From a virus (taxonomy: Duplodnaviria > Caudoviricetes): a stretch of DNA of 32,878 bases. Made by a program: the position numbers and the translations under genes. The stretch is taken from positions 1 to 32,878 of IMG/VR virus record IMGVR_UViG_3300032233_001613; one strand, 5' to 3'. Below are positions 317-28,214 of the stretch, in pieces. The notes beneath the pieces were generated by a model. The model saw only the letters and a program-made list of their open reading frames with translations, was not told the DNA's origin and made no database searches. Each line of letters opens with the position of its first letter. The stretch's first letter is position 1.

Positions 317-489
317 TGGCCTTCAAGCGCACATTCCGTGAGGAGTTCTCCCTGTTCTTCGAGATTCCGGCCCTCATCTCTCTTGCGGTGCTCGGCCTAA
401 TCCTGTTGCCGATTGTCGGTCCATTCTGTCTCTGGAGGCGTGGGCCAAAGATAAACAAGGGTGGTCACTGCGACCACAAGGAGGGGTGA
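316..489 (+). CDS. Small membrane protein (57 aa)
   Basis: TGATG coupling with upstream GGAGG; MAFKRTFREEFSLFFEIPALISLAVLGLILLPIVGPF... has one hydrophobic segment. Confidence 0.55.
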   Translation: MAFKRTFREEFSLFFEIPALISLAVLGLILLPIVGPFCLWRRGPKINKGGHCDHKEG

Positions 490-490
490 C

Positions 491-727
491 ATGGCAATCC
501 ATGTTGACGAGTGGCTGAAGGAGCTAGAGGCTTTTTCGAAGCGTTCTGACGAAGGCCACACCGCCGAAGAAATCTCGGAGAACACGGGGATGACACTCCG
601 TGTCGTGCGAGAACGGCTCAAGCAGGTCGCACGCCTTGGCCGACTTCGTGTCGGTCGCCGTAGTTCCATGACCATTGACGGCCGCCATACCGTGGTCCCC
701 GTCTATCTGGTCACGGGTTCCAAGTGA
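491..727 (+). CDS. Winged helix-turn-helix DNA-binding protein
   Basis: AGGAGG SD before ATG 491; TAEEISENTGMTLRVVRERLKQV is an HTH-like pattern followed by beta wing. Confidence 0.6.
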   Translation: MAIHVDEWLKELEAFSKRSDEGHTAEEISENTGMTLRVVRERLKQVARLGRLRVGRRSSMTIDGRHTVVPVYLVTGSK

Positions 728-12795: not shown

Positions 12796-13653
12796 CTAGG
12801 TGATGTTGATGCTGACGATGCTGCTATCGTACCACTCCGCAGCGCCGAACTCGGTGTAGCAAATGAACCGCTGCACGAGGCCGTCCATCTGCGACTCAAG
12901 CATCTTCGGCTTCTGGTTCCAGCCGAGCGCCCACGCATCCTGAATCATAAGCGGACAATACTTCGTACCCGTCTGGTTCAGGACAAGGCCCGACTCTTCG
13001 ATGTTGGCACCATAGGTGGTGACAAGCTGACCCGAGGTGGCCGAACCAGCCGAACCACGAATCTGGTACTCCTTGAGGGCCGAGATATTGAGCGCCTGCG
13101 CCAGAACATCCGGGTGGAGGACGATGTTGTACGGAGTCTTGCCGATACGGAACTTGCGCTTCGCGTTCTTGGCGAGCTTGGCAACAGCCGAACGCCAAGT
13201 CGCGTCGTCGAACGCCGCACCAGTCTCAACAAGCGAGGCGCTGGCGGCAAGGGCAAGCAGCGTGCTATCAATCTTCTCGTCGAGAGACGAGAGCATCTGC
13301 TTGCGCCACGCCGAGATGGCGTTACCGTCATCGATAATCTGGTTCAACGTGTCGGGGTTAAGCTCGATACCAGCGTAATACGCCGTCGGCGTAACCGTGA
13401 CTTCGGCCTCAGTGTTCGTCGAGTAGGTCAGATTGTCAGAGGCAAGGTGGGAGCTGGCCGACGCAGTCTGGGCCGTAATGGGCGCAATCTTGCGAAGGTG
13501 GAGCTTCTTGCCAATCTTCTGGACGCCAACGGGTTCCGCGACGAGAGGGGCAACAATCGCCTCCTCCATCGGGTCGAGCGCGAACTGGCTATCCCACACT
13601 TCCTTCAGGATAGACGCAGCTTCGGTGCTGGTGCGAATACTAGCGTGAGCCAT
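12796..13653 (-). CDS. Major capsid protein (HK97 fold)
   Basis: 285 aa after portal and scaffold; LKEVWDSQF start, spine-helix-like WRKQMLSSLDEKIDSTLL, IVLHPD, GQLVTTYGANIEES, TEFGAAEW; AAGGAG SD. Confidence 0.8.
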   Translation of the reverse strand: MAHASIRTSTEAASILKEVWDSQFALDPMEEAIVAPLVAEPVGVQKIGKKLHLRKIAPITAQTASASSHLASDNLTYSTNTEAEVTVTPTAYYAGIELNPDTLNQIIDDGNAISAWRKQMLSSLDEKIDSTLLALAASASLVETGAAFDDATWRSAVAKLAKNAKRKFRIGKTPYNIVLHPDVLAQALNISALKEYQIRGSAGSATSGQLVTTYGANIEESGLVLNQTGTKYCPLMIQDAWALGWNQKPKMLESQMDGLVQRFICYTEFGAAEWYDSSIVSINIT

Positions 13654-17212: not shown

Positions 17213-17291
17213 CTGGAGGTTCCTCCTGTTAGTGAAAGCCACGCTGGCCGGGCGCGGCCGTGTCGGGCCACCGACGCGGCGTGTAGTAACA

Positions 17292-18845
17292 CTAAATGGA
17301 AAACGGGTCAACCGCCGAATCCTGTCCGGGAACAATCAACTTGTGTTTAGCGAGAAACATCTCGCCGTCAGTTTTCTCCATTGACTTTGGCTTCTCGTAC
17401 AATGGCAGGGTTTCAAGCAGGTGGCAGGCAAGACCGAGAACAATCATGTCCTCGTCGTGCGCCCCTGCACCAGCCTCGATGCGGCCGTTGCGATTTACCA
17501 CAACATCGCCAAGAGAGTCGCACCCTTGCTGGCTCCAGAACAACAATCCGTCCTCGACGATGGCCTTCTGCAAAGCGCCGATGATTGTTCCACGAGTCGT
17601 GGCGGTAGTAAGCCAGCCAATCCGTTGCGACAGCGGAACATGCAGCGAGTCCCGGTGATGCTCGATGTAGACATTGCCGTACCGGTCGCAGCCCTCGTAG
17701 AACGACTCGCCGTATCCAGAGTTGCGCTCCCAGACGAGCATTGCGTTGTTATATTGCGTTGCAAGATGGCGACTTAAGCGCCCAAGCTCGTAGGCCGGGA
17801 TGTAACCGTTGTACCGGACGAACACCTCTTTGCTCTTGCGGCCGACGACGATTACCTCGCACGGGTCGTGCTCTCCGGCCTCGTCCCAGATTCCGGCTGA
17901 CGGGTCGGCGATGACGAAATAGGACTCGTCGGGATTAGGGTCGCACCAAGACTCGTAGACGACTGCCGTACCGGTACGAGTAACCCACTTCTTTTCAACC
18001 CCTGTACGGCATCTTTCCGACCATCGCCTCAGGCCATCTTGGTCAAATGGGTTAGTCCCGGTCAGGTCAACATAGTCTCCGTACAGCTTGGCCTTCTGGA
18101 GTGGGCCTCGGGAATCCTGTTCGATGGCTTTCTTGTGCTCGTCAGACAAAGCCTTGTTGTCGAACACGGACATCGTCAACTCAATCTTGCCGTCCTTGCC
18201 GTCGGGGCCGCCGCACCCCTTGAAGTCGTCGCGCAGCGGACGCCACTCGCGCTTATCAATGGGCGTAGCCGTGATGAATCGAACGAAATGACGGTTGGCC
18301 TTGCCTCGCATACGAAGCTCGACCCACATATTCCAGTCCGGCGGCTCGTCCGCGTGAGCCCAATCGAGTCGCATACCAGCCACCGACTGGCCTCCCTCGA
18401 CGAAGAACCGAATGCAGGACCATTGACGCCAGTCGTCGTCAGTCGAACGGTTGGGCTTTACCCAAATCGCCTCGATGGCTGTACCATTTCGCTCGATGTG
18501 GTGGGGCCAATGTCCAATGGCCTCCTGATACTTGCGAATCACGCTTTCCTTTGCCATAGCGCGACCCTTCGCAAGCACGACACCAGTATTTGGCGTGCCC
18601 AGCATGGGAAGCGGAACGCCGTCAATCTCCACAAAGCCGCGAGCAAGGGCCACCCCACAGAACGCGCCAATGGTCGTCTTACCGGCCTGATTTCCAGAAC
18701 GCAGGTAAATCTCCCGGAACTTTGCGAGACTACCCGCGAACCGTCGCTGCGCATCACTCTTGAACCTGAAGTGCGTTACGGGGTCGGCCTTGAAAGAGGC
18801 CAACCCCGATTCGGCTGTAAGAAAAACTGACGGGTCAAAGTTCAC
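17292..18845 (-). CDS. terL: Terminase large subunit
   Basis: Walker A SGNQAGKT, Walker B AHADEP, motif III TATP, RNase H-like nuclease acidic motifs IADPSAG and HDEDMIV. Confidence 0.92.
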   Translation of the reverse strand: MNFDPSVFLTAESGLASFKADPVTHFRFKSDAQRRFAGSLAKFREIYLRSGNQAGKTTIGAFCGVALARGFVEIDGVPLPMLGTPNTGVVLAKGRAMAKESVIRKYQEAIGHWPHHIERNGTAIEAIWVKPNRSTDDDWRQWSCIRFFVEGGQSVAGMRLDWAHADEPPDWNMWVELRMRGKANRHFVRFITATPIDKREWRPLRDDFKGCGGPDGKDGKIELTMSVFDNKALSDEHKKAIEQDSRGPLQKAKLYGDYVDLTGTNPFDQDGLRRWSERCRTGVEKKWVTRTGTAVVYESWCDPNPDESYFVIADPSAGIWDEAGEHDPCEVIVVGRKSKEVFVRYNGYIPAYELGRLSRHLATQYNNAMLVWERNSGYGESFYEGCDRYGNVYIEHHRDSLHVPLSQRIGWLTTATTRGTIIGALQKAIVEDGLLFWSQQGCDSLGDVVVNRNGRIEAGAGAHDEDMIVLGLACHLLETLPLYEKPKSMEKTDGEMFLAKHKLIVPGQDSAVDPFSI

Positions 18846-19690
18846 TTGGCCTTCCGCTTAACCCCACGGTACAAACGATTCTTGGACACCATGCCGCCGT
18901 AGGCGAAGCCCTTCAGCTTGTCGGGGTTTACACGGCCTTCCTTGGCCTTCTTTGCATAATCCTTTGCAAGTGCGCCGTAAGCCTGCGTACCAAGTGCTAC
19001 ATCGGCGACAGGCGAGGCGACACCCATGACTCCGCGCCACGCAGGGTTGCGGCCAACCATCTTGGCGACATACTTGAGAGGGCGAATAGGGTTGAATCTG
19101 CTGGCGGCAGCGCCTCGCGTGAGGACAGCGTTCCAATACGCCTCGTCAACCTTGTCGTAGGCGTTACCGACACCCTTTGCGGCACCCTTAACGGCGTTTC
19201 CAATGCGCGTTCGCATAGACGGATTGCGAGGAGGCATTATCGGCCCTTCTTTCCGCGTCGCAACACCGCCGTAAGCGTAACCCTGCTTGCCCTTGGAGCG
19301 AGAAGCGGCAATACCAGCACCAGCCGCAGCGGCAGGAAGGATTCCGCGTGCTTCAAGCGCTCGGAGACGGCGCATTATCTTTGACGCATACTTTTGCAAA
19401 GCGTCAGCATTAGGCTTTGCATCTACTTCCTTAACAGACATTCCCATCTTTCGCATGTAATCGCGCTCAGGCTTGATAATTTTGCTGACAGCGATTCCTT
19501 CGGCCGGGACAATGCGCATATACCTGCGCATTGTCCCGCTACGGATGTCATTTACGCCGGACAACTTAGCCATAGAACTCATCTGCACGGCCTTCTTTGC
19601 CGCGGCATAAATCTTCGGAGAATCTTCCTTCATGGCTTTTGCCGTCGCTAGAGCCCGCTTGATTGCCCGTCCAGACGACCAAATAGACAT
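18842..19690 (-). CDS. Highly basic protein, paralogue A
   Basis: K/R/A/M-rich; RGILPAAAAGAGIAASRSKGKQGYAYGG and a second KGFAYGG. Confidence 0.75.
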   Translation of the reverse strand: MSIWSSGRAIKRALATAKAMKEDSPKIYAAAKKAVQMSSMAKLSGVNDIRSGTMRRYMRIVPAEGIAVSKIIKPERDYMRKMGMSVKEVDAKPNADALQKYASKIMRRLRALEARGILPAAAAGAGIAASRSKGKQGYAYGGVATRKEGPIMPPRNPSMRTRIGNAVKGAAKGVGNAYDKVDEAYWNAVLTRGAAASRFNPIRPLKYVAKMVGRNPAWRGVMGVASPVADVALGTQAYGALAKDYAKKAKEGRVNPDKLKGFAYGGMVSKNRLYRGVKRKAK

Positions 19691-19691
19691 A

Positions 19692-20357
19692 TCAGCGACC
19701 CTTCTTTGCTCGGCGCACCACGCCGCCGTAGGCGTAACCCTGCTTGCCCTTGGAGCGCGATGCGGCTACGCCAGCGCCAACGGATGCGGCGGGGAGAATG
19801 CCTCGCTTTGCAAGTTCACTCATGTAGCGAATAACATCATTAGGGCGGCCAACGCTGCTTGCTCGGAGTTCGCGAAGCATACCAGCGCGCATAGTCCGCC
19901 TCTGTGCGGTCTTGGCGACGACCTTATTCCCAAGGCCGTAATCCTCCGCAATCTTCTTCATTTTCGCAACTCGCTCAACCTTGTTATGGTTGTACCCGCT
20001 CGAAACATAGTCCTTAAGTCGCTGGTACACCTTGGGAAGTTCCGCCTTCAACTCACGAGCACTCTTTACATAGCGGTTCACCCCAACACCACCCATAACG
20101 ACGGAGTCCTTGGGGTTCCTACCAGAAATCTTTCTCATGAAGTTGATGCCCTCGCGAGAATTTGCAAGGACTCGCTGCCTTGCAACGGATGTGCTCACCC
20201 CGGGATTGGACTTTTTAATATACTGCGCAATATCACTGCTCAACATGTCTGAGAAACGCTTGGCGATGTCGCCGCCGGATTGCGCCAGTTTGGTGTCGTG
20301 GCGCAACTTTTCGGCAATTTCGGGCGCGAGCTTTGCGGCCTTTCTAATCCATCCCAT
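19692..20357 (-). CDS. Highly basic protein, paralogue B
   Basis: Ends RGILPAASVGAGVAASRSKGKQGYAYGGVVRRAKKGR. Confidence 0.75.
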   Translation of the reverse strand: MGWIRKAAKLAPEIAEKLRHDTKLAQSGGDIAKRFSDMLSSDIAQYIKKSNPGVSTSVARQRVLANSREGINFMRKISGRNPKDSVVMGGVGVNRYVKSARELKAELPKVYQRLKDYVSSGYNHNKVERVAKMKKIAEDYGLGNKVVAKTAQRRTMRAGMLRELRASSVGRPNDVIRYMSELAKRGILPAASVGAGVAASRSKGKQGYAYGGVVRRAKKGR

Positions 20358-20359
20358 GA

Positions 20360-20818
20360 TTACTTCCTCCCGCAGGTCGGGCAGCAGCCCGCCATGCCAC
20401 CGTACTTGAATCCCTGACGCTTGCTCGAAGAGCCAGCGGCGATAGCAGCGGCCGGAGCGATGCCCGTACCCATCTTGAGCAGGCTCTTGAGACGCGAAGC
20501 GTCCGTCAGAGAGCGGGCCTTGGCCGAGAACGCGGGCACACCTGACTTCATGTAGTGCTTGCGGAGGTCGTTCAGGGCGCGCTTCATGGTCGCGTCGCCC
20601 ATAATGGTCGCGGAACCCTTGATGGTCGCGCTGGCGGCATCCTTGAGCGACTGATAACCCTTAGGGAATTCGGCCTTCAGGGCGCGCATACGGGTGAGGG
20701 CGCCACGGGTGATACCACCGTGCTTCGCCTCCTCGATGCCGTGGATGATATTGCTCAGCGCCTTGCGACTTAGGCGCGACTTCGAGAGAGACTGAGCGTA
20801 CTTACCGTAGTTCGGCAT
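20360..20818 (-). CDS. Highly basic protein, paralogue C
   Basis: Ends GIAPAAAIAAGSSSKRQGFKYGGMAGCCPTCGRK; AGGAG SD. Confidence 0.75.
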   Translation of the reverse strand: MPNYGKYAQSLSKSRLSRKALSNIIHGIEEAKHGGITRGALTRMRALKAEFPKGYQSLKDAASATIKGSATIMGDATMKRALNDLRKHYMKSGVPAFSAKARSLTDASRLKSLLKMGTGIAPAAAIAAGSSSKRQGFKYGGMAGCCPTCGRK

Positions 20819-22081: not shown

Positions 22082-22110
22082 TTGAACAGGAGCATCGGCT
22101 GTGGTAAGTT
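22082..22110 (+). promoter_or_regulatory. Early promoter P1
   Basis: TTGAAC-17 bp-TAAGTT with GTGG directly before the -10. Confidence 0.65.
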
Positions 22111-22169
22111 GCCCATGTCAGCAGGAAGCAGCACCAGCCACAAACCACACCAACCAAGGAGAACAAGCC

Positions 22170-22721
22170 ATGGACACCACGACCGTCTGCAAGATGCTTC
22201 GGGACCTGCACGAACTGCGCTCCAGTGAGGAGTCGCTTGGATGGACCATCAAGAGCCGTGTTCGTGCTGCGCAGCGGGAGGCTGAGCGAATGGTCGAGAA
22301 GGAGTTCGCTGCGGAGGTCGCTGCGAAGGCTATCGAGGTGTCGAATGCTGCCGACATGGCATACTTCGTGACGATGGGCGCTCTGTCCGGCTCCAAAATT
22401 GTGGTCACCTGCCGCGCCACGGGGAGCGAGCACGATGCGAAGACTACGGTCTGGCGGGAGTGGCAGCATCGAGGCAATGGTTGGTCTGTGGTGCGGTCGT
22501 ACGCGATTGGTGTCTGCAAGCGCGACCACAACGTCAAGTACAGCGGTGAGTGCAAGCGAGGCACGCTCGCACTATTCGAACTGAAGAGCGACGGCACCAC
22601 GTCTACGAAGCCGTCCTATCGGCTCCATCAGATTGGCGACGAACTCTTCGTTTCGATGGGCATCCTCCCCGACGGTTTCGATATGAACATCGTTAGTGCG
22701 GCTAGTGCGAAGGAGGACTGA
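22170..22721 (+). CDS. Early hypothetical protein
   Basis: AAGGAG SD, ATG 22170. Confidence 0.7.
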   Translation: MDTTTVCKMLRDLHELRSSEESLGWTIKSRVRAAQREAERMVEKEFAAEVAAKAIEVSNAADMAYFVTMGALSGSKIVVTCRATGSEHDAKTTVWREWQHRGNGWSVVRSYAIGVCKRDHNVKYSGECKRGTLALFELKSDGTTSTKPSYRLHQIGDELFVSMGILPDGFDMNIVSAASAKED

Positions 22722-22733
22722 CGAATAATCCTC

Positions 22734-22762
22734 TCGACAGGGAGCGTCTGGTGTGGTAGGAT
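22734..22762 (+). promoter_or_regulatory. Early promoter P2
   Basis: TCGACA-17-TAGGAT, TGTGG extended -10. Confidence 0.7.
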
Positions 22763-22813
22763 GCTCCCTGTCGAGAGTGAGTCACCAACCACCAACAGCG
22801 AGAGGAGCCACTC

Positions 22814-23002
22814 ATGTCGGACCTGAGCAAGAACACCAGCAGCGATGCAATCATCTTCTGTACCCTGTGCGGGGCGCATGGTGAACGAGCTAGCATGTGG
22901 TGTCGAGGTGACGACGACATCGCGGTGTGCGCCAAGTGTCAGGAGCGCCTCAAGCGAGAGGCTGCGTGCGACATCTGGGCATATGAGCCCGACTGGAACT
23001 AG
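22814..23002 (+). CDS. Small zinc-finger protein
   Basis: CTLC...CAKC; GAGGAG SD. Confidence 0.65.
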   Translation: MSDLSKNTSSDAIIFCTLCGAHGERASMWCRGDDDIAVCAKCQERLKREAACDIWAYEPDWN

Positions 23003-23014
23003 CAAATAAATCGC

Positions 23015-23043
23015 TGGACACAGCCAGCGCGATGTGGTAGGAT
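23015..23043 (+). promoter_or_regulatory. Early promoter P3
   Basis: TGGACA-17-TAGGAT, TGTGG. Confidence 0.7.
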
Positions 23044-23089
23044 GTGTCCATCAACGAAGCGAACCACACCAAGCCAAGGAGAGAGCCAG

Positions 23090-23449
23090 ATGGGCGTTGT
23101 CACGATGGTGAAGATTGAGACGAACAAGAGCGGTCGAACCGTTGCCCGGAGCTGCGTCGAGCAGGTCATTGGCATCACCTACGCGGATGGTTCGTCAGAG
23201 ATTCGGGTCATCCTGTTCAATCGCGAGTATCTGCCCATTGCAGCGCGCGTCTATGTTGAGAACGGAACCACTCAACTCGCGATGGATGCGTTCTGCCGTG
23301 AACACCTGTCTGAATCCGATGCCGCCTCAGCGAGCGAGTTCAACAAGAACGCTATCGCATACTGGGCAAACTATCGTTCGGCTGGAAAGACTATCGTTCA
23401 GGTCGGCGGTCCTCACCTAGAAAACCTTCTCGCCGTATTCGGCCAGTAA
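23090..23449 (+). CDS. Early hypothetical protein
   Basis: AAGGAG SD, ATG 23090. Confidence 0.65.
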   Translation: MGVVTMVKIETNKSGRTVARSCVEQVIGITYADGSSEIRVILFNREYLPIAARVYVENGTTQLAMDAFCREHLSESDAASASEFNKNAIAYWANYRSAGKTIVQVGGPHLENLLAVFGQ

Positions 23450-23457
23450 AAAACATC

Positions 23458-23486
23458 TTGACGAGGGGCACACGACGTGGTATGGT
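23458..23486 (+). promoter_or_regulatory. Early promoter P4
   Basis: TTGACG-17-TATGGT, GTGG, A-rich upstream. Confidence 0.7.
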
Positions 23487-23536
23487 GCCCCTTGTCGAGA
23501 GCAGGTTCCAAGCCACGCCAACCAAAGGAGCGAGCC

Positions 23537-23845
23537 ATGCAGAACCTGACCATTGAGCAGTTCGTGAAGCGGTACATGGTCCTGTTGTTTTCTTGGAAGC
23601 AGGCAGAAAAGACCGGCATGTGTGGCATGACGAAGCTCGCTAACGAAGAAATCCGCGAACTTCTGAACTCTCATCCTGTTCTGTGGTCGACGGCCATGTT
23701 GTACGCGTCCAGCGAGTTCGCTGGAGATGGCTCTGAAAATTACGACATCGCCATCGCACGAATCGCAAGGGAAATGCCGTCCTACATTGAGGCTGTCAAG
23801 TGGAATTTAGACTACTTCGAGAAGGAACGGGCGAATACTCCGTGA
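23537..23845 (+). CDS. Early hypothetical protein
   Basis: AAGGAG SD, ATG 23537. Confidence 0.65.
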   Translation: MQNLTIEQFVKRYMVLLFSWKQAEKTGMCGMTKLANEEIRELLNSHPVLWSTAMLYASSEFAGDGSENYDIAIARIAREMPSYIEAVKWNLDYFEKERANTP

Positions 23846-23870
23846 CAATGCGCGCGTGATGTGGTATGAT
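23842..23870 (+). promoter_or_regulatory. Early promoter P5
   Basis: GTGACA-17-TATGAT, TGTGG. Confidence 0.7.
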
Positions 23871-23916
23871 GTCTCCAGTAAAGCAGCACACCACACCAAA
23901 CCACGAGAGGTGAAAC

Positions 23917-24237
23917 ATGGCGCGATACGAGGGATTCATCAACTGCTCGTCCACCTTCATCTGCCTGTGCTGCGAAAAGCGCGCCGAGATGGACGCCATG
24001 AGGCTTCGAATCGCAGAGCTAGAGAATGCCCTTGCAGCGGCATCGTGGCTTTGCGCCAGCGCAGCAGCCGACCTGCTCGTCGATGACGTAGAGGCGATGA
24101 TTCGCCATCCTAAGGGCAACGCCGTCGAAAAGGTGTGCCGTGAGTCCGAGCGCCTGCTTGGCAGCAGGTTCGCTTGCGGGCGCGACTGGGAACGCGGATG
24201 GGGACTGTTCGAAAAGACCGGCAAGCCCACTCTGTGA
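23917..24237 (+). CDS. Early hypothetical protein
   Basis: GAGGTG SD, ATG 23917. Confidence 0.6.
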   Translation: MARYEGFINCSSTFICLCCEKRAEMDAMRLRIAELENALAAASWLCASAAADLLVDDVEAMIRHPKGNAVEKVCRESERLLGSRFACGRDWERGWGLFEKTGKPTL

Positions 24238-24290
24238 AGAGGATGCGCGACGCTACATCGCAAAAGGTGCTAGGCTGTAGAAATAACCAA

Positions 24291-24319
24291 TTGACAAGAT
24301 GCTCCTGTTGTGGTAGGAT
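24291..24319 (+). promoter_or_regulatory. Early promoter P6
   Basis: TTGACA-17-TAGGAT, TGTGG. Confidence 0.75.
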
Positions 24320-24374
24320 TCACCTTGTCGAAAGCAGCACGCACACGCAGCACACACACACACGAGAGGTTCCA

Positions 24375-24539
24375 ATGATTGAGTTCGTTCGTCCAATGCG
24401 AGACTGGAAGGACAGAGCAGCAGGATGGGCTGTGTGGCGAGTGACGCTCGCCGATGGGAGCCGACACATCGTGCACGGAACGCGAGACGATGCGCGAGAC
24501 TATCGAGATGCTCACCCCGACAAGGAAAGCACGCGATGA
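24375..24539 (+). CDS. Small early protein (54 aa)
   Basis: GAGGT SD, ATG 24375. Confidence 0.55.
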   Translation: MIEFVRPMRDWKDRAAGWAVWRVTLADGSRHIVHGTRDDARDYRDAHPDKESTR

Positions 24540-24685
24540 TTTACGGTGTCCGGTACGACGGCATCCTCTGGTTCGTCACCAAGGAGGGAACCCCGCTCCT
24601 ATCGTGTAAGAGCCAGTCCGATGCGAACAGAATGTGTGAGAAGCTTGAGGGCCAGGAGATATTCTACTTGACGCCAGCCGAATGA
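24536..24685 (+). CDS. Small early protein (49 aa)
   Basis: ATGA coupling, AAGGA upstream. Confidence 0.55.
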   Translation: MIYGVRYDGILWFVTKEGTPLLSCKSQSDANRMCEKLEGQEIFYLTPAE

Positions 24686-24696
24686 CGTGGTAGTAT
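24668..24696 (+). promoter_or_regulatory. Early promoter P7
   Basis: TTGACG-17-TAGTAT, GTGG. Confidence 0.7.
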
Positions 24697-24746
24697 GCGT
24701 CTCGTCAGGGCGGTCCTGACACCGACCACAAACAAGAGAGGGAGCC

Positions 24747-25142
24747 ATGACCAATCGTCGCCACAACATCGAACGAGTCCACCTCCTGATTGGCAACGAC
24801 GACGAACACAATCGCACGATGCACAGCATTCACCTGAATGCCGTCATGCTGCGTGAAATCGAAGGTCTGGTGTCCGACTTCAATACCGTCGTGGACGATT
24901 GGACCAATGACAAGGACGCTACTCTCTGCGGGTTCGCATACACGGAAGAAGATGACCACATGTTCCGATGCGTCCACGCCGCTGTGAACGCGCTGAGCGA
25001 TGCCGTCGGTGTTCTTCGCACGGCGCACATCAACTCTCGCACCATTGTCAAGGAGATGCGAGAGGATGCTGCGCATCAGACCGATGCGGTCAATCGAGAG
25101 GCCGTCGGCCACGCTCCGGTCAACAGCGGTGAGGTGCGATGA
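24747..25142 (+). CDS. Early hypothetical protein
   Basis: GAGGGAG SD, ATG 24747. Confidence 0.65.
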   Translation: MTNRRHNIERVHLLIGNDDEHNRTMHSIHLNAVMLREIEGLVSDFNTVVDDWTNDKDATLCGFAYTEEDDHMFRCVHAAVNALSDAVGVLRTAHINSRTIVKEMREDAAHQTDAVNREAVGHAPVNSGEVR

Positions 25143-25291
25143 ACTGCGACGGGTGCGGCGAGTGGATGGACTCCGGTGAGGTCTACCGGGGTCCGTCAGG
25201 CGGAAACTTCCACGTTGAGTGTCTGGCCGAAGCGATTCACCAGTCAGAGCAGGGCATGGCGAGCGCTATGTTCGCATACTTCAACCGATGA
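25139..25291 (+). CDS. 50-aa zinc-finger protein
   Basis: Not in the track; ATGA coupling, GAGGTG SD; MNCDGCGEW...FHVEC (CxxC...HxxC). Confidence 0.6.
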   Translation: MNCDGCGEWMDSGEVYRGPSGGNFHVECLAEAIHQSEQGMASAMFAYFNR

Positions 25292-25461
25292 CGGAGGGCG
25301 GGTTGGACAAGTGGCACAAGTACGAGTCGCTCATCTGCGAGATGGTGGACACACCAGACCTTGACTCGTTCATCAAGGCACACCGCTCGCTGCTCAAATG
25401 GGCAGAACGAAATGGGAACCCACCAGAAAAACTACTTGACATGCAGGACTGGGCGTGGTAA
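25288..25461 (+). CDS. Small hypothetical protein (57 aa)
   Basis: ATGA coupling with the previous ORF. Confidence 0.5.
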   Translation: MTEGGLDKWHKYESLICEMVDTPDLDSFIKAHRSLLKWAERNGNPPEKLLDMQDWAW

Positions 25462-25464
25462 TAT
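25436..25464 (+). promoter_or_regulatory. Early promoter P8
   Basis: TTGACA-17-TAATAT, GTGG, A-tract upstream. Confidence 0.75.
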
Positions 25465-25510
25465 GCACATGTCGGCGTCAGAGGGACGCCGCTTGAACAG
25501 GAGGCGCGAG

Positions 25511-25834: not shown

Positions 25835-26052
25835 CCAGACTTGCACGCAAAGTCCGCCGGGTGGCGGGGGATGGCCGCGATTCGTTCGTGGTCATCCTCC
25901 ATCCAGATGACGGTGCGATGGGCGCGAGCATCGAACTGCGGGAGAAGGGGAGGCGCAAGGGATACCGAATCGAGTTGTCCCGCCTGTATACCAGACTCGC
26001 AATGCAGGAGGCTGGGTTCTCTGGTAAGCGCTCGAAGGTACGGTCGAAGTAG
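25831..26052 (+). CDS. Small basic hypothetical protein
   Basis: GGAGGT SD, ATGA coupling. Confidence 0.6.
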   Translation: MTRLARKVRRVAGDGRDSFVVILHPDDGAMGASIELREKGRRKGYRIELSRLYTRLAMQEAGFSGKRSKVRSK

Positions 26053-26059
26053 ATTGTCC

Positions 26060-26088
26060 TTTACTTCCGTAGAATACCGTGGTATACT
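26060..26088 (+). promoter_or_regulatory. Promoter P9 (replication genes)
   Basis: TTTACT-17-TATACT, GTGG. Confidence 0.65.
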
Positions 26089-26111
26089 GTGGTATAGAGA
26101 GGGAGGTGCAA

Positions 26112-26789
26112 ATGAAGCCGTGGAAGGAACTACGGTTGGACATCGCGTCGTATATTGCGGAGGTCCGACACGGGGCGCTGAGCTACGAGCAGCAGACCCG
26201 GCTCTCGATGGCGTGGCCGACGGTCTACCTGTCTGGGAACGCGTCAGGGTGCGGAGAGGATGTCTGGCGAGGTGCGCTTGGGTACACCGCTACTGAATGG
26301 GAAAGCGCGCGTGAGCGGTTTGCTTTAGTGCTTGACAAGGATGGGGTGTGGATGTTATGTTTCCTTCGCGACGAGATTGCGCGGCAGAGGGAGCAGTCTA
26401 AGAAACAGAGCGAGAGGGTATCGAAGCGGTGGAATACCACGGTAAGCCAGCGTATACCGAACGATACCAGCGAATACCCTGCAGTTGCATTAGAATCAAA
26501 GAAAGAATCTAGTCTCTTGTACCTTGAGGCTAACGGCGGGGAGAGGTGGGTTCCGTCTGCGAAGCAGGTTAAGGACTGGCAGGTGGCGCATCCCGGGGTT
26601 GACTTCGATGCAGAGTTTGCCCGGATGCGTGGTTGGTTGGAGGCGAACCCGGAGAGGCGAAAGACTCTACGCGGTCTGCCAAGGTTCGCGAACTTCTGGT
26701 TGTCGCGAGCGGAGTCCAAGACTCCGTTGACCAGAGTCCACTCCGAAATCGGTTCGGTGTGGTCGCTTAATCCCAAGAGGGGAGGCTGA
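26112..26789 (+). CDS. Replication initiator (lambda O-like architecture)
   Basis: GGAGGT SD; N-domain, iteron-encoding linker, C-domain VDFDAEFARMRGWLEANPERRKT...RFANFWLSR; directly upstream of the DnaB gene. Confidence 0.7.
   Translation: MKPWKELRLDIASYIAEVRHGALSYEQQTRLSMAWPTVYLSGNASGCGEDVWRGALGYTATEWESARERFALVLDKDGVWMLCFLRDEIARQREQSKKQSERVSKRWNTTVSQRIPNDTSEYPAVALESKKESSLLYLEANGGERWVPSAKQVKDWQVAHPGVDFDAEFARMRGWLEANPERRKTLRGLPRFANFWLSRAESKTPLTRVHSEIGSVWSLNPKRGG
26432..26520. repeat. Putative replication origin: 10-bp-phased ATACC iterons plus AT-rich tract
   Basis: ATACC at 26434, 26454, 26464, 26474 (AAGCC at 26444), then ATTAGAATCAAAGAAAGAATCTAG. Confidence 0.6.
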
Positions 26790-26790
26790 C

Positions 26791-28038
26791 ATGTCGGGCA
26801 CTTCGCAGCGAGTTTTGGGTTCGCTTCTGCTGGGCTGTGGCGACCCGCTAGTTGTTGACCCAACGGCGCTGGCAACGGGGCTTCAGCGGGCCATCCTTGG
26901 CGTCATGGCGCGATATGGGAACGGGGTGTCGGCAGAGCAGGTGCAGAACGAACTCGCTGGCAAGGAGAACCCGGACCAAATCATGCAGGAGATTGTGTCC
27001 TGTACCGGGACCAGCGTCTCGTTCTCCGAAGGTGGATTCGCTGCTCTGGTCGGACAGTTGCACCGCGAGAAGGCGTCGTCGTCCATCCGACGAGGCGCGC
27101 TAGAAGTGGTCAGGGCGCTGGACGAGGGAGAGACTCCCGAAGGTGTCGCTGCCAAGGTGGCCGCAATCTCGGAGCATACTCACCCGCCTATCGGCAACGA
27201 GGTCGAGAACATCGGCGACAACATGCACGAGTTGTTCTTGAGCAACGACAAGGACGCCTTGCCTCTTGGCATGAACTGTCTCGATGCGCTCAAGGTCGTG
27301 CCGGGGAACCTGACCGTTCTTGCCGCCCGCCCGGGTTTCGGCAAGACCGCCCTGCTTGGAACCTTCACGCTCGCTGCTGCCAACAACGGGTGGCGCGTCC
27401 TGTTCTTCTCTCTGGAGATGCCGGGCAAGCAGATTCGACAGCGACTCCTCGCCGGTAACTCTAGCATCCCGATGTCGAGCATCCTTCATCCGGAGGGGAC
27501 CGAACTGCTGGACAGCGTGCGAACCCTGTCTGAACTCCCTATCGGAGTCCGTGACGCTGTCGCCGGGGACACCCTGACAGTAGAGCGCATAGCTGCCACG
27601 GTTCGCGCATATCGCAAACGCTATCCAGACGACATACTGGCGGTCATGGTGGACTACATCCAGTTGGTCAAGTGCCGGGACAAGTACGACATCAGGCACC
27701 AGATGCTTGGGCATGTCTGCCGTGAACTCAAGGCCACGGCTCTTCGCGAGAAGGTTCCGATGGTGGTGGCCGCACAGATTGGGCGCGGGGTCGAGAACCG
27801 TGGCAAGGAGGCCAAGCCGCAGTTGTCCGACCTGCGGGAGTCGGGGGAGATTGAGAACACCGCAGACCAAGTGGTTCTCGTCCACCGCGAGAGCATCCTG
27901 TCCGACACGGCGCTGCTAGCCGTTGCGAAGTACCGGATGGGCGCACCGTTCGTGGCAGAAGCCCTATTCGATGGACCGTGCTGCGTATTTCGGGATGTCC
28001 ACGCCGGGCGCACGGTCGTCAGGGAGGAGTGGCAATAA
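26791..28038 (+). CDS. dnaB: Replicative DNA helicase, DnaB family
   Basis: AARPGFGKT, FFSLEM, VDYIQLV, AAQIGR, DLRESGEIENTAD, AKYRMG. Confidence 0.93.
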   Translation: MSGTSQRVLGSLLLGCGDPLVVDPTALATGLQRAILGVMARYGNGVSAEQVQNELAGKENPDQIMQEIVSCTGTSVSFSEGGFAALVGQLHREKASSSIRRGALEVVRALDEGETPEGVAAKVAAISEHTHPPIGNEVENIGDNMHELFLSNDKDALPLGMNCLDALKVVPGNLTVLAARPGFGKTALLGTFTLAAANNGWRVLFFSLEMPGKQIRQRLLAGNSSIPMSSILHPEGTELLDSVRTLSELPIGVRDAVAGDTLTVERIAATVRAYRKRYPDDILAVMVDYIQLVKCRDKYDIRHQMLGHVCRELKATALREKVPMVVAAQIGRGVENRGKEAKPQLSDLRESGEIENTADQVVLVHRESILSDTALLAVAKYRMGAPFVAEALFDGPCCVFRDVHAGRTVVREEWQ

Positions 28039-28146
28039 TAAGGCGGACCCCCCCGGCGCGAGACGGGGCTTGCGTCAGCGAGGCGCGAGAGGGGAGCGCC
28101 GTCAGCCGAAGGTCCGCCGACAGAACATACCACATCAAGAAAACAC

Positions 28147-28175
28147 TTGCAATCACGGTTCGTTTGTGGTAAGAT
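28147..28175 (+). promoter_or_regulatory. Promoter P10
   Basis: TTGCAA-17-TAAGAT, TGTGG. Confidence 0.7.
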
Positions 28176-28214
28176 TCACGCATCGGTAGGTTAACCGACA
28201 ACGAGAGGAGCAAC

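Follow-up and report, generated by a model that had tools for sequence, protein, structure and literature searches.

Promoter cassettes of the early region

The virus record IMGVR_UViG_3300032233_001613 (Duplodnaviria; Caudoviricetes), analysed over its whole length of 32.9 kb and referred to here as the window, carries a series of tandem promoter-like sequences in the plus-strand early region, two of which, P2 and P4, lie within long inverted repeats that pair the -35 box with the start-site region. Because of a 72-nt direct repeat at its ends, the window probably represents a complete, circularised 32.9-kb genome. Endolysin, portal, and terminase genes are encoded on the minus strand and DnaB helicase, SSB, and exonuclease genes on the plus strand, with a capsid protein gene at 12796-13653, a gene content that identifies the genome as that of a tailed double-stranded DNA (dsDNA) phage. 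The terminase has 135 protein homologues, with P0001-P0006 at 81-93% identity, none of them found by homology search in a cultured relative, and the phage belongs to a family known from metagenomes; at 32.9 kb, with a 72-nt end repeat and such a terminase, it is not a T4-type myovirus. No RNA polymerase family matched any of the open reading frames (ORFs) scanned, the largest ORF being 1078 aa, and no Rfam family matched in the window up to an E value of 1. The eight main early ORFs (e1-e8) gave no PHROGs or Pfam match above the cut-off, with weak matches only for e2, and no tblastn match in related loci over 8 kb.

Ten plus-strand sites have in common a TTGACA-like box and a TAnnnT box, separated by a 17-nt spacer whose last letters are GTGG. 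The initial annotation had described this family correctly but placed all of it within 22082-25475, whereas eight members (P1-P8) lie inside that range, between the structural and replication genes, and two outside it, with -10 boxes at 26083 and 28170. The string GTGGTAnnnT occurs 13 times where 1.95 occurrences are expected, a number reached in none of 100 shuffles. P1-P10 are predicted sigma-70-type promoters whose activity and start sites are likewise predictions; a start-site motif that reads TGTCG or GTCG stands 6-10 nt past the -10 box in this family, in agreement with the general pyrimidine(-1)/purine(+1) rule (PMC4782308).

The cassettes are built in the order upstream stop codon, A-rich tract, -35 box, GTGG-TAnnnT, leader, ribosome-binding site, and orphan ORF (Table 1). 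In most of P2-P8 the stop codon of the upstream gene and the A-rich tract stand immediately 5' of the -35 box, and P1-P7 each have an A/C-rich leader downstream, with a purine-rich ribosome-binding site and a small orphan ORF behind it. No terminator-like site was found on the plus strand between 19373 and 27385. P1-P8 are identical, letter for letter, to one contig of the likely source sequencing run, which does not constitute independent evidence; this one contig covering P1-P8 shows no inversion of the loop, cassette deletion, or variant. No inter-cassette joint was found in the contigs of three runs, only one of which covers the region, at a depth of about 11, contigs being prone to drop rare variants. 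The leaders of P1-P7 (e.g. 22136-22162 and 23882-23908) have ACCACAC-like words in common, whose complement is found in the GTGTGGT of the extended -10; for P5, pairing of leader word and extended -10 is predicted in read-through RNA, which may be chance.

Table 1. Predicted promoters and early ORFs of the window, with the promoter used as an internal control
Feature	Position	Strand	Remarks
Internal control promoter	17262..17311	-	just 3' of terminase gene; GAC-to-GTC 34 nt; without -35 stem; GTCG pairs downstream
P1 predicted promoter	22082..22110	+	-35 TTGAAC, -10 TAAGTT; TGTCA start-site motif downstream; bulged non-significant stem, z -1.3
e1 early orphan ORF, 183 aa	22170..22721	+	stop codon just 5' of P2; no family
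P2 promoter	22731..22777	+	-35 TCGACA 22734-39, -10 TAGGAT 22757-62; within 18-bp stem
e2 early ORF, 62 aa	22814..23002	+	Cys-rich; weak B-box-like match below cut-off
P3 promoter	23012..23050	+	-35 TGGACA 23015-20, -10 23038-43
e3 early orphan ORF, 119 aa	23090..23449	+	
P4 promoter	23456..23500	+	-35 TTGACG 23458-63, -10 TATGGT 23481-86; within 16-bp stem
e4 early orphan ORF, 102 aa	23537..23845	+	stop codon falls in P5 -35 box
P5 promoter	23842..23870	+	without stem, z +0.7
e5 early orphan ORF, 106 aa	23917..24237	+	
P6 promoter	24291..24331	+	-35 TTGACA, -10 24314-19; weak arm pair
e6 early orphan ORF, 54 aa	24375..24539	+	
P7 promoter	24668..24720	+	-10 24691-96; -35 arm at chance level, z -0.1
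e7 early orphan ORF, 131 aa	24747..25142	+	
P8 promoter	25436..25490	+	-10 25459-64; 8-position arm at chance level, z -0.5
P9 promoter	26060..26095	+	outside 22082-25475; 9-bp hairpin around -10; 5' of likely replication-initiator gene
P10 promoter	28147..28198	+	outside 22082-25475; small 5' hairpin; palindromic -35 hexamer common to divergent promoter

Long stems at P2 and P4

The P2 stem comprises 18 bp (22731-48/22760-77) with one G-T pair and an 11-nt loop, at -38.7 kcal/mol, and thus extends the perfect 15-bp pairing reported initially; the P4 stem, as reported, comprises 16 bp (23456-71/23485-500) with two G-T pairs, enclosing a 13-nt loop, at -30.2 kcal/mol. These are the two longest ungapped hairpins of the genome, among nine on the plus strand with at least 11 pairs, and the longest hairpin in six shuffles reached 11-13 bp at most. 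Compared with shuffled sequences, the arm duplexes score z -8.0 in P2 and -7.2 in P4, followed by -3.4 in P3, -2.2 in P6, and values between -1.3 and +0.7 in P1, P5, P7, P8, P9, and P10, and folding of the whole cassette gives -7.6 in P2, -5.1 in P4, -2.3 in P3, -1.0 in P6, -1.1 in P8, and +0.2 in P7. A permutation of own against swapped arms gave 73/200000 for all ten promoters, 1221/40320 without P2 and P4, and 430/5040 when P6 was left out as well. As background, 130 viral promoters were taken without selection, by clustering 139 distinct hits at 135 loci in one of the 64 parts of the collection; z fell below -3 in three of them and below -5 in one (Fisher p 0.005 and 0.013). Clearly non-random stems between -35 box and start site are those of P2 and P4 only, that of P3 being moderate, that of P6 weak, and the other six at chance level. 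The six arm pairs listed in the initial annotation are all found at their places, but its count of at least six self-complementary promoters fails statistically: the comparison with shuffled controls that it proposed leaves P2 and P4 far above chance and P1, P5, and P7-P10 within it.

The remaining promoters carry stem-loops of differing strength and position. P3 has an 8-bp perfect arm pair in a different register (23015-22/23043-50, 29 nt) and an alternative 6-bp hairpin (23012-29) that overlaps the -35 box, while P6 has an 11-position arm pair in the register of P2 with one G-T and one A-C. In P7 a competing 6-bp hairpin (24704-20) begins with the start-site GTC and lies where the 5' end of the transcript is predicted; P8 has a 6-bp hairpin (25474-90) in the corresponding place. 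Stem-loops thus lie over the -35 box (P3), around the -10 box (P9), or past the start (P7, P8, P10), and range from the strong stems of P2 and P4 through 6-9-bp stems (P3, P7, P8, P9) and weak ones (P6, P10) to none (P1, P5). Inside small early ORFs, at 25165-25197 and 25866-25900, the plus strand has two further long hairpins of 13 and 15 bp that include G-T pairs, so that four of the nine longest plus-strand hairpins, P2 and P4 included, fall within about 3 kb of the early region. An unrelated viral promoter (L223, 151-200) pairs its spacer with its start region in an 11-bp inverted repeat and has the -10 box in the loop, the layout recurring sporadically.

At three pairs of the register common to P2 and P4 both bases differ between the two promoters, neither stem contains a mismatch, and the loops and leaders have diverged. 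When P2, P4, P6, and P7 are set in this register, two-sided change is found at 6 of 18 pairs (2 of 500 shuffles; 1-3 in slid controls), a count that leans in favour of pairing, the structure having been taken from P2 and the rows chosen for register; 79% of cells pair, compared with 35-50% when slid. The earlier statement that the arms differ between promoters yet stay complementary therefore holds for P2 and P4 but not family-wide.

The G-T pairs had been taken as a sign of selection on a top-strand hairpin. In every one of them, however, a promoter motif dictates at least one of the two bases (a T of the -35 box opposite a G of the start motif or the next base, the G of TTGACG opposite the -1 T, or the last T of the -10 box), so that selection on the top strand is not demonstrated, and the free inner pairs are all Watson-Crick, 6/6 in P2 and 6/6 in P4. 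Folding z for the top and bottom strands is -7.6 and -7.8 in P2, which makes its strands equal, -1.0 and -2.2 in P6, and -5.1 and -2.9 in P4, the P4 stem reaching -30.2 kcal/mol on the transcribed strand and -21.7 kcal/mol on the other.

The equivalence of strands in P2 bears on whether the repeat acts as DNA. Negative supercoiling from eight tandem promoters might extrude a cruciform or hairpin that removes the -35 box and start from the duplex and so throttles the promoter; P2 is perfect for 15 bp with both strands equally stable (DNA duplex -21.9 and -22.1 kcal/mol), and the region that melts first lies in the loop. Loops of 11-17 nt and GC-rich arms would nonetheless disfavour cruciform extrusion, the bottom strand of P4 would have two A-C mismatches (-12.9 vs -18.2), and most cassettes are without the feature, which together leave such a switch improbable even though supercoil-driven extrusion of promoter hairpins is demonstrated for phage N4 (PMC4496689). 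A related and somewhat more doubtful idea is that P2 and P4 throttle themselves, selection having lengthened the inherent complementarity of -35 box and start motif into a stem that would form in underwound DNA, or between the new pppGUCG 5' end and the -35 region of the non-template strand. Vigorous transcription from upstream would then shut the downstream promoter without any protein.

A shared core set by promoter geometry

The distance from GAC to GTC is, as first noted, 34 nt in P2, P4, P6, and P7 and 33 nt in P8. This common core is incidental, a -35 box standing opposite a start-site motif: TTGAC of the -35 box is by default the complement of the start motif, so the 33-34 nt are the distance from -35 to start, and the short arms of P7 and P8 accordingly require no further explanation. 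The promoter just past the terminase gene serves as an internal control. Across 17 distinct orthologous sequences, the window's included, TGAC stands 32-35 nt 5' of GTC, with 30 of 119 inner positions paired (25%), a lowest z of -1.8, and GTCG pairing with a downstream CGAC. Selection for TTGAC..TGTCR in 16 of the 64 collection parts gave 101 cores at 123 loci, which clustering reduced to 80 distinct viral promoters; in these, 114 inner Watson-Crick pairs compare with 115.4 expected, and none has more than 3 of 5-7 inner pairs, against 6/6 in P2 and in P4; the core alone is thus not extended elsewhere. A widespread class with an inverted -35 (TGTCAA), first suspected from about 500 matching viral stretches, was ruled out, TGTC not being enriched past the -10 box in the 130 unselected promoters and the inner positions of the 80 selected ones not pairing beyond expectation.

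The constant spacing might also be taken for an operator, on which a dimeric phage regulator, binding GAC and GTC half-sites about 34 bp apart, shuts the early promoters off. An 88-aa ORF at 461-727 (+) with weak helix-turn-helix and sigma region 4 matches, all below the cut-off, would be a candidate regulator. The spacing is, however, accounted for by the -35-to-start geometry, and an operator has no need of complementarity at variable positions with two-sided changes such as P2 and P4 display, as the initial annotation had recognised; the operator is on these grounds very improbable.

True orthologues of P2 and P4 were not found among terminase-linked loci. Alignment of the window protein and 55 of the 135 terminase homologues found 3, 46, and 1 loci, and no related locus over 8 kb has homologues of e1-e8. 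Scans for the P2-type promoter pattern found only unrelated stretches, 1 and 3 in number and none with a strong stem, and a scan for the post-terminase element described below gave 31 stretches, none from the family of the window phage.

The predicted start of the post-terminase promoter (17262-17275, -) coincides with a 14-nt element, GTCGGTGGC(A/C)CGAC. Of the 31 loci extending 300 nt beyond the terminase gene (terminases 30-84% identical), 18 have it, eight have variants or partial copies, and five are without it; the loci listed for it are L003, L005-L008, L012, L017, L020-L023, L026, L032, L033, L037-L039, L041, and L045. It forms a 4-bp stem with an almost invariant loop and, judged by eye, a two-sided change in one variant (L043). 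Closer relatives have a second hairpin with a GGCC-containing loop after it. The gene downstream apparently begins in a signal-peptide-like manner, and the element, which is without Rfam match, could be a conserved 5' RNA leader or operator.

A proposed hairpin in read-through RNA

The most likely reading, held tentatively and somewhat short of probable, is that P2 and P4 resemble the promoter-early stem-loop (PeSL) cassettes of T4-type phages and that their hairpins punctuate the message in read-through early RNA. Cassettes for the host polymerase would stand in tandem, with P2 and P4, and weakly P3 and P6, inside a long inverted repeat. A transcript from the predicted start lacks the 5' arm, so beginning at GTCG it could not form the stem, which is possible only in read-through RNA or unwound DNA; the stem would thus likely fold only in RNA that reads through from the upstream cassette. 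Read-through is itself likely because no terminator-like plus-strand site occurs across the region. On this reading the promoters are presumed active, with starts about 7-8 nt past the -10 box, and the -35 box and GTCG start motif would provide a free seed of 5-6 bp, which the lineage may have lengthened through the unconstrained bases of spacer and discriminator. Punctuation would consist of polymerase pausing or attenuation, or of a double-stranded cut site of the RNase III type, for which 16-18 bp is a plausible substrate length, and the hairpin may give the upstream mRNA a protected 3' end, each orphan gene then relying mainly on its own promoter. Masking of the ribosome-binding site was ruled out, its predicted access being unchanged (0.46 vs 0.52 in P2, 0.55 vs 0.55 in P4, and 0.59 vs 0.59 in P6). 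Of the RNA-level options raised initially, the read-through hairpin is retained, while a 6S-like sigma decoy is disfavoured by the start-site geometry and the lack of an Rfam match.

Several observations weigh against an RNA hairpin of this kind. With a strong stem in no more than 2 of its 10 members, the class cannot depend on one, and in distant relatives the promoters that open the early region are without such a stem (0/11 in nine relatives with terminases 30-69% identical, chosen by eye, none a true P2 or P4 orthologue; lowest z -2.4), TGTCG being kept in three and TGTGCG in three. The bottom strand folds equally well in P2 and better in P6. No U-tract follows the top-strand stem at any of the stems, which leans towards cleavage or pausing over canonical termination, a GC-rich stem with a U-tract in the sense direction being absent at these stems. 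Free positions that are purely Watson-Crick fit DNA template switching as well as RNA selection, and the consensus is broken at exactly the base that perfects a pair, in the -35 box of P2 and P3 and in the -10 box of P4. These departures would fit strong selection for pairing or template-switch copying; template switching predicts them, and an RNA stem that tolerates G-U pairs has no need of them.

The stems may accordingly be viewed as a functionless mutational by-product, template switching having copied one arm onto the other in an ancestor of P2 and P4 and in copies of it, with the -35 box and start motif as the quasi-palindrome and P1 and P6 as decaying versions. This view, the leading alternative, unlikely but far from negligible, is favoured by the six free inner pairs of P2 and of P4 being all Watson-Crick, by the consensus bases of P2, P3, and P4 replaced in the pairing direction, and by the patchy distribution, 2/10. 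In proteobacteria there is support for template switching as a process that turns imperfect inverted repeats into perfect ones (PMC5941160). Against it, the same seed is not extended in the 80 other viral promoters or in the 17 orthologous post-terminase promoters, two G-T pairs are left uncorrected in P4, and the differences within the P2 and P4 stems are all transitions along an A-U/G-U/G-C path.

On the bottom strand, the hairpin followed by the complement of the A-rich tract as a U-rich tail might halt leftward transcription over the early genes. T-rich bottom-strand tails occur at P2, P3, P4, P6, and P8, with a run of six T at P4, a terminator-like bottom-strand site is flagged at P3, and a leftward promoter is predicted with its -10 box at 28124-29. 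A-rich tracts are nevertheless expected upstream of strong promoters anyway, the best tail, at P4, goes with a weakened bottom stem, and a terminator is already predicted within about 90 nt of the leftward promoter, so that antisense terminators seem quite improbable.

Comparison with known systems

PeSL cassettes are described from the T4-type phages RB49/phi1, PST, and nt-1 (PMC2839356; PMC4122927). According to the text of PMC2839356, their stem-loops may overlap the -35 or -10 box, contain G-T pairs, and vary in placement, and one of them cut lacZ read-through like a strong terminator. The window's cassettes have in common with these the repeated sigma-70-type promoters between orphan ORFs of a variable early region, the order of stop codon, AT-rich tract, -35, -10, ribosome-binding site, and start codon, and G-T-containing stem-loops in varying positions, including over the -35 or -10 box. 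They differ in residing in a 33-kb non-T4 phage and in the 16-18-bp stem that spans -35 to start site with most of the -10 box in the loop, a layout absent from the five subclasses as described in the text of PMC2839356. PeSLs are also associated with termination and mini-circles; P2 and P4 are likened to them by sequence layout. Lying outside a T4-type genome, the P2 and P4 cassettes are PeSL-like rather than strict T4-type PeSLs. The initial annotation knew of no described promoter class of this kind, which the published PeSL cassettes contradict as regards stem-loops over promoter boxes and G-T pairs. The exact arrangement of -35 arm and start arm was not found in the literature searched, which under-represents subscription journals and in which the PeSL papers were compared by text.

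A second precedent is the T4 translational gate, in which a promoter lies in a hairpin, as for gene e and I-TevI (PMC3014915). As there, the promoter encodes the 5' arm, so that the hairpin would form only in read-through RNA, the start of P2 and P4 being predicted. In contrast to the gate, the 3' arm ends about 25-30 nt 5' of the ribosome-binding site, predicted access to which is unchanged, and the promoters are of early type. With a 3' arm that does not contain the ribosome-binding site and access unchanged, a gate of the gene e type is ruled out.

In T7 and SPO1/SP82, RNase III processing hairpins lie between early genes. These phages and the window alike have small genes in a polycistronic early region, with long stems between the cistrons, but the T7 and SPO1/SP82 sites are separate from promoters, whereas the P2 and P4 stems are made of promoter sequence and their cleavage is putative.

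The promoters of N4's virion RNA polymerase are small template-strand hairpins whose centre lies at -11 and which a phage polymerase reads (PMC4496689). Variable stem bases that stay complementary in early promoters are common to N4 and the window, but the window's promoters have host -35 and -10 boxes and 11-17-nt loops, and no polymerase gene was detected among the scanned ORFs. Frpo-type hairpins of the F plasmid contain both the -10 and the -35 box and act on transferred single-stranded DNA (PMC13478746); promoter boxes within a hairpin are thus a likeness, whereas in P2 and P4 the loop takes in the first bases of the -10 box and the stem pairs the start site with the -35 box. A single-stranded promoter after the manner of Frpo or N4, which the initial annotation had considered, or an RNA decoy for the host sigma factor, would gain from a duplex -35 beside an unpaired non-template -10, a geometry like that of a fork junction. 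It is scarcely credible nonetheless: with the beginning of the -10 unpaired and the start site consumed as the -35 partner, no template is left to transcribe, the genome, that of a tailed dsDNA phage, encodes terminase and portal but gave no RNA polymerase match among the scanned ORFs, and no Rfam family matched up to E 1.

Neighbouring features

Around P10, back-to-back promoters (P10 on the plus strand and another on the minus strand, 28124-28175) use one palindromic -35 hexamer, TTGCAA, at 28147-52. The leftward promoter of this pair would yield a structured RNA of about 90 nt with a stem and a U-rich tail at its end (28026-28122; folding z only -1.6), and a similar divergent pair is apparently present, by eye, at the same place in the related locus L008 (near 2234). 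The surroundings of the P9 -10 box (26074-26095) recur at 26429-26455 within the downstream gene 26112-26789, a likely replication initiator just 5' of DnaB, whose orthologue in L008 has similar repeats; these may be origin iterons with autoregulation of P9. Further upstream, three neighbouring basic ORFs at 18842-20818 (-) each have a similar G(Y/F)xYGG motif, located near the C-terminus in two and both mid-protein and near the end in the third; they have no family matches and are possibly internal virion proteins.

Implications for phage early regions

The complementarity of -35 consensus and start motif at 33-34 nt amounts to a ready hairpin seed, available by default. It is also a trap, in that ordinary promoters mimic a covarying family. 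P2 and P4 are short, clean objects on which RNA-level selection, DNA cruciform control, and template-switch mutagenesis can be set against one another. If their stems act on read-through RNA, PeSL-type cassettes would reach an uncultured phage family far from T4, and the design would be compact, with the promoter itself serving to punctuate the message.

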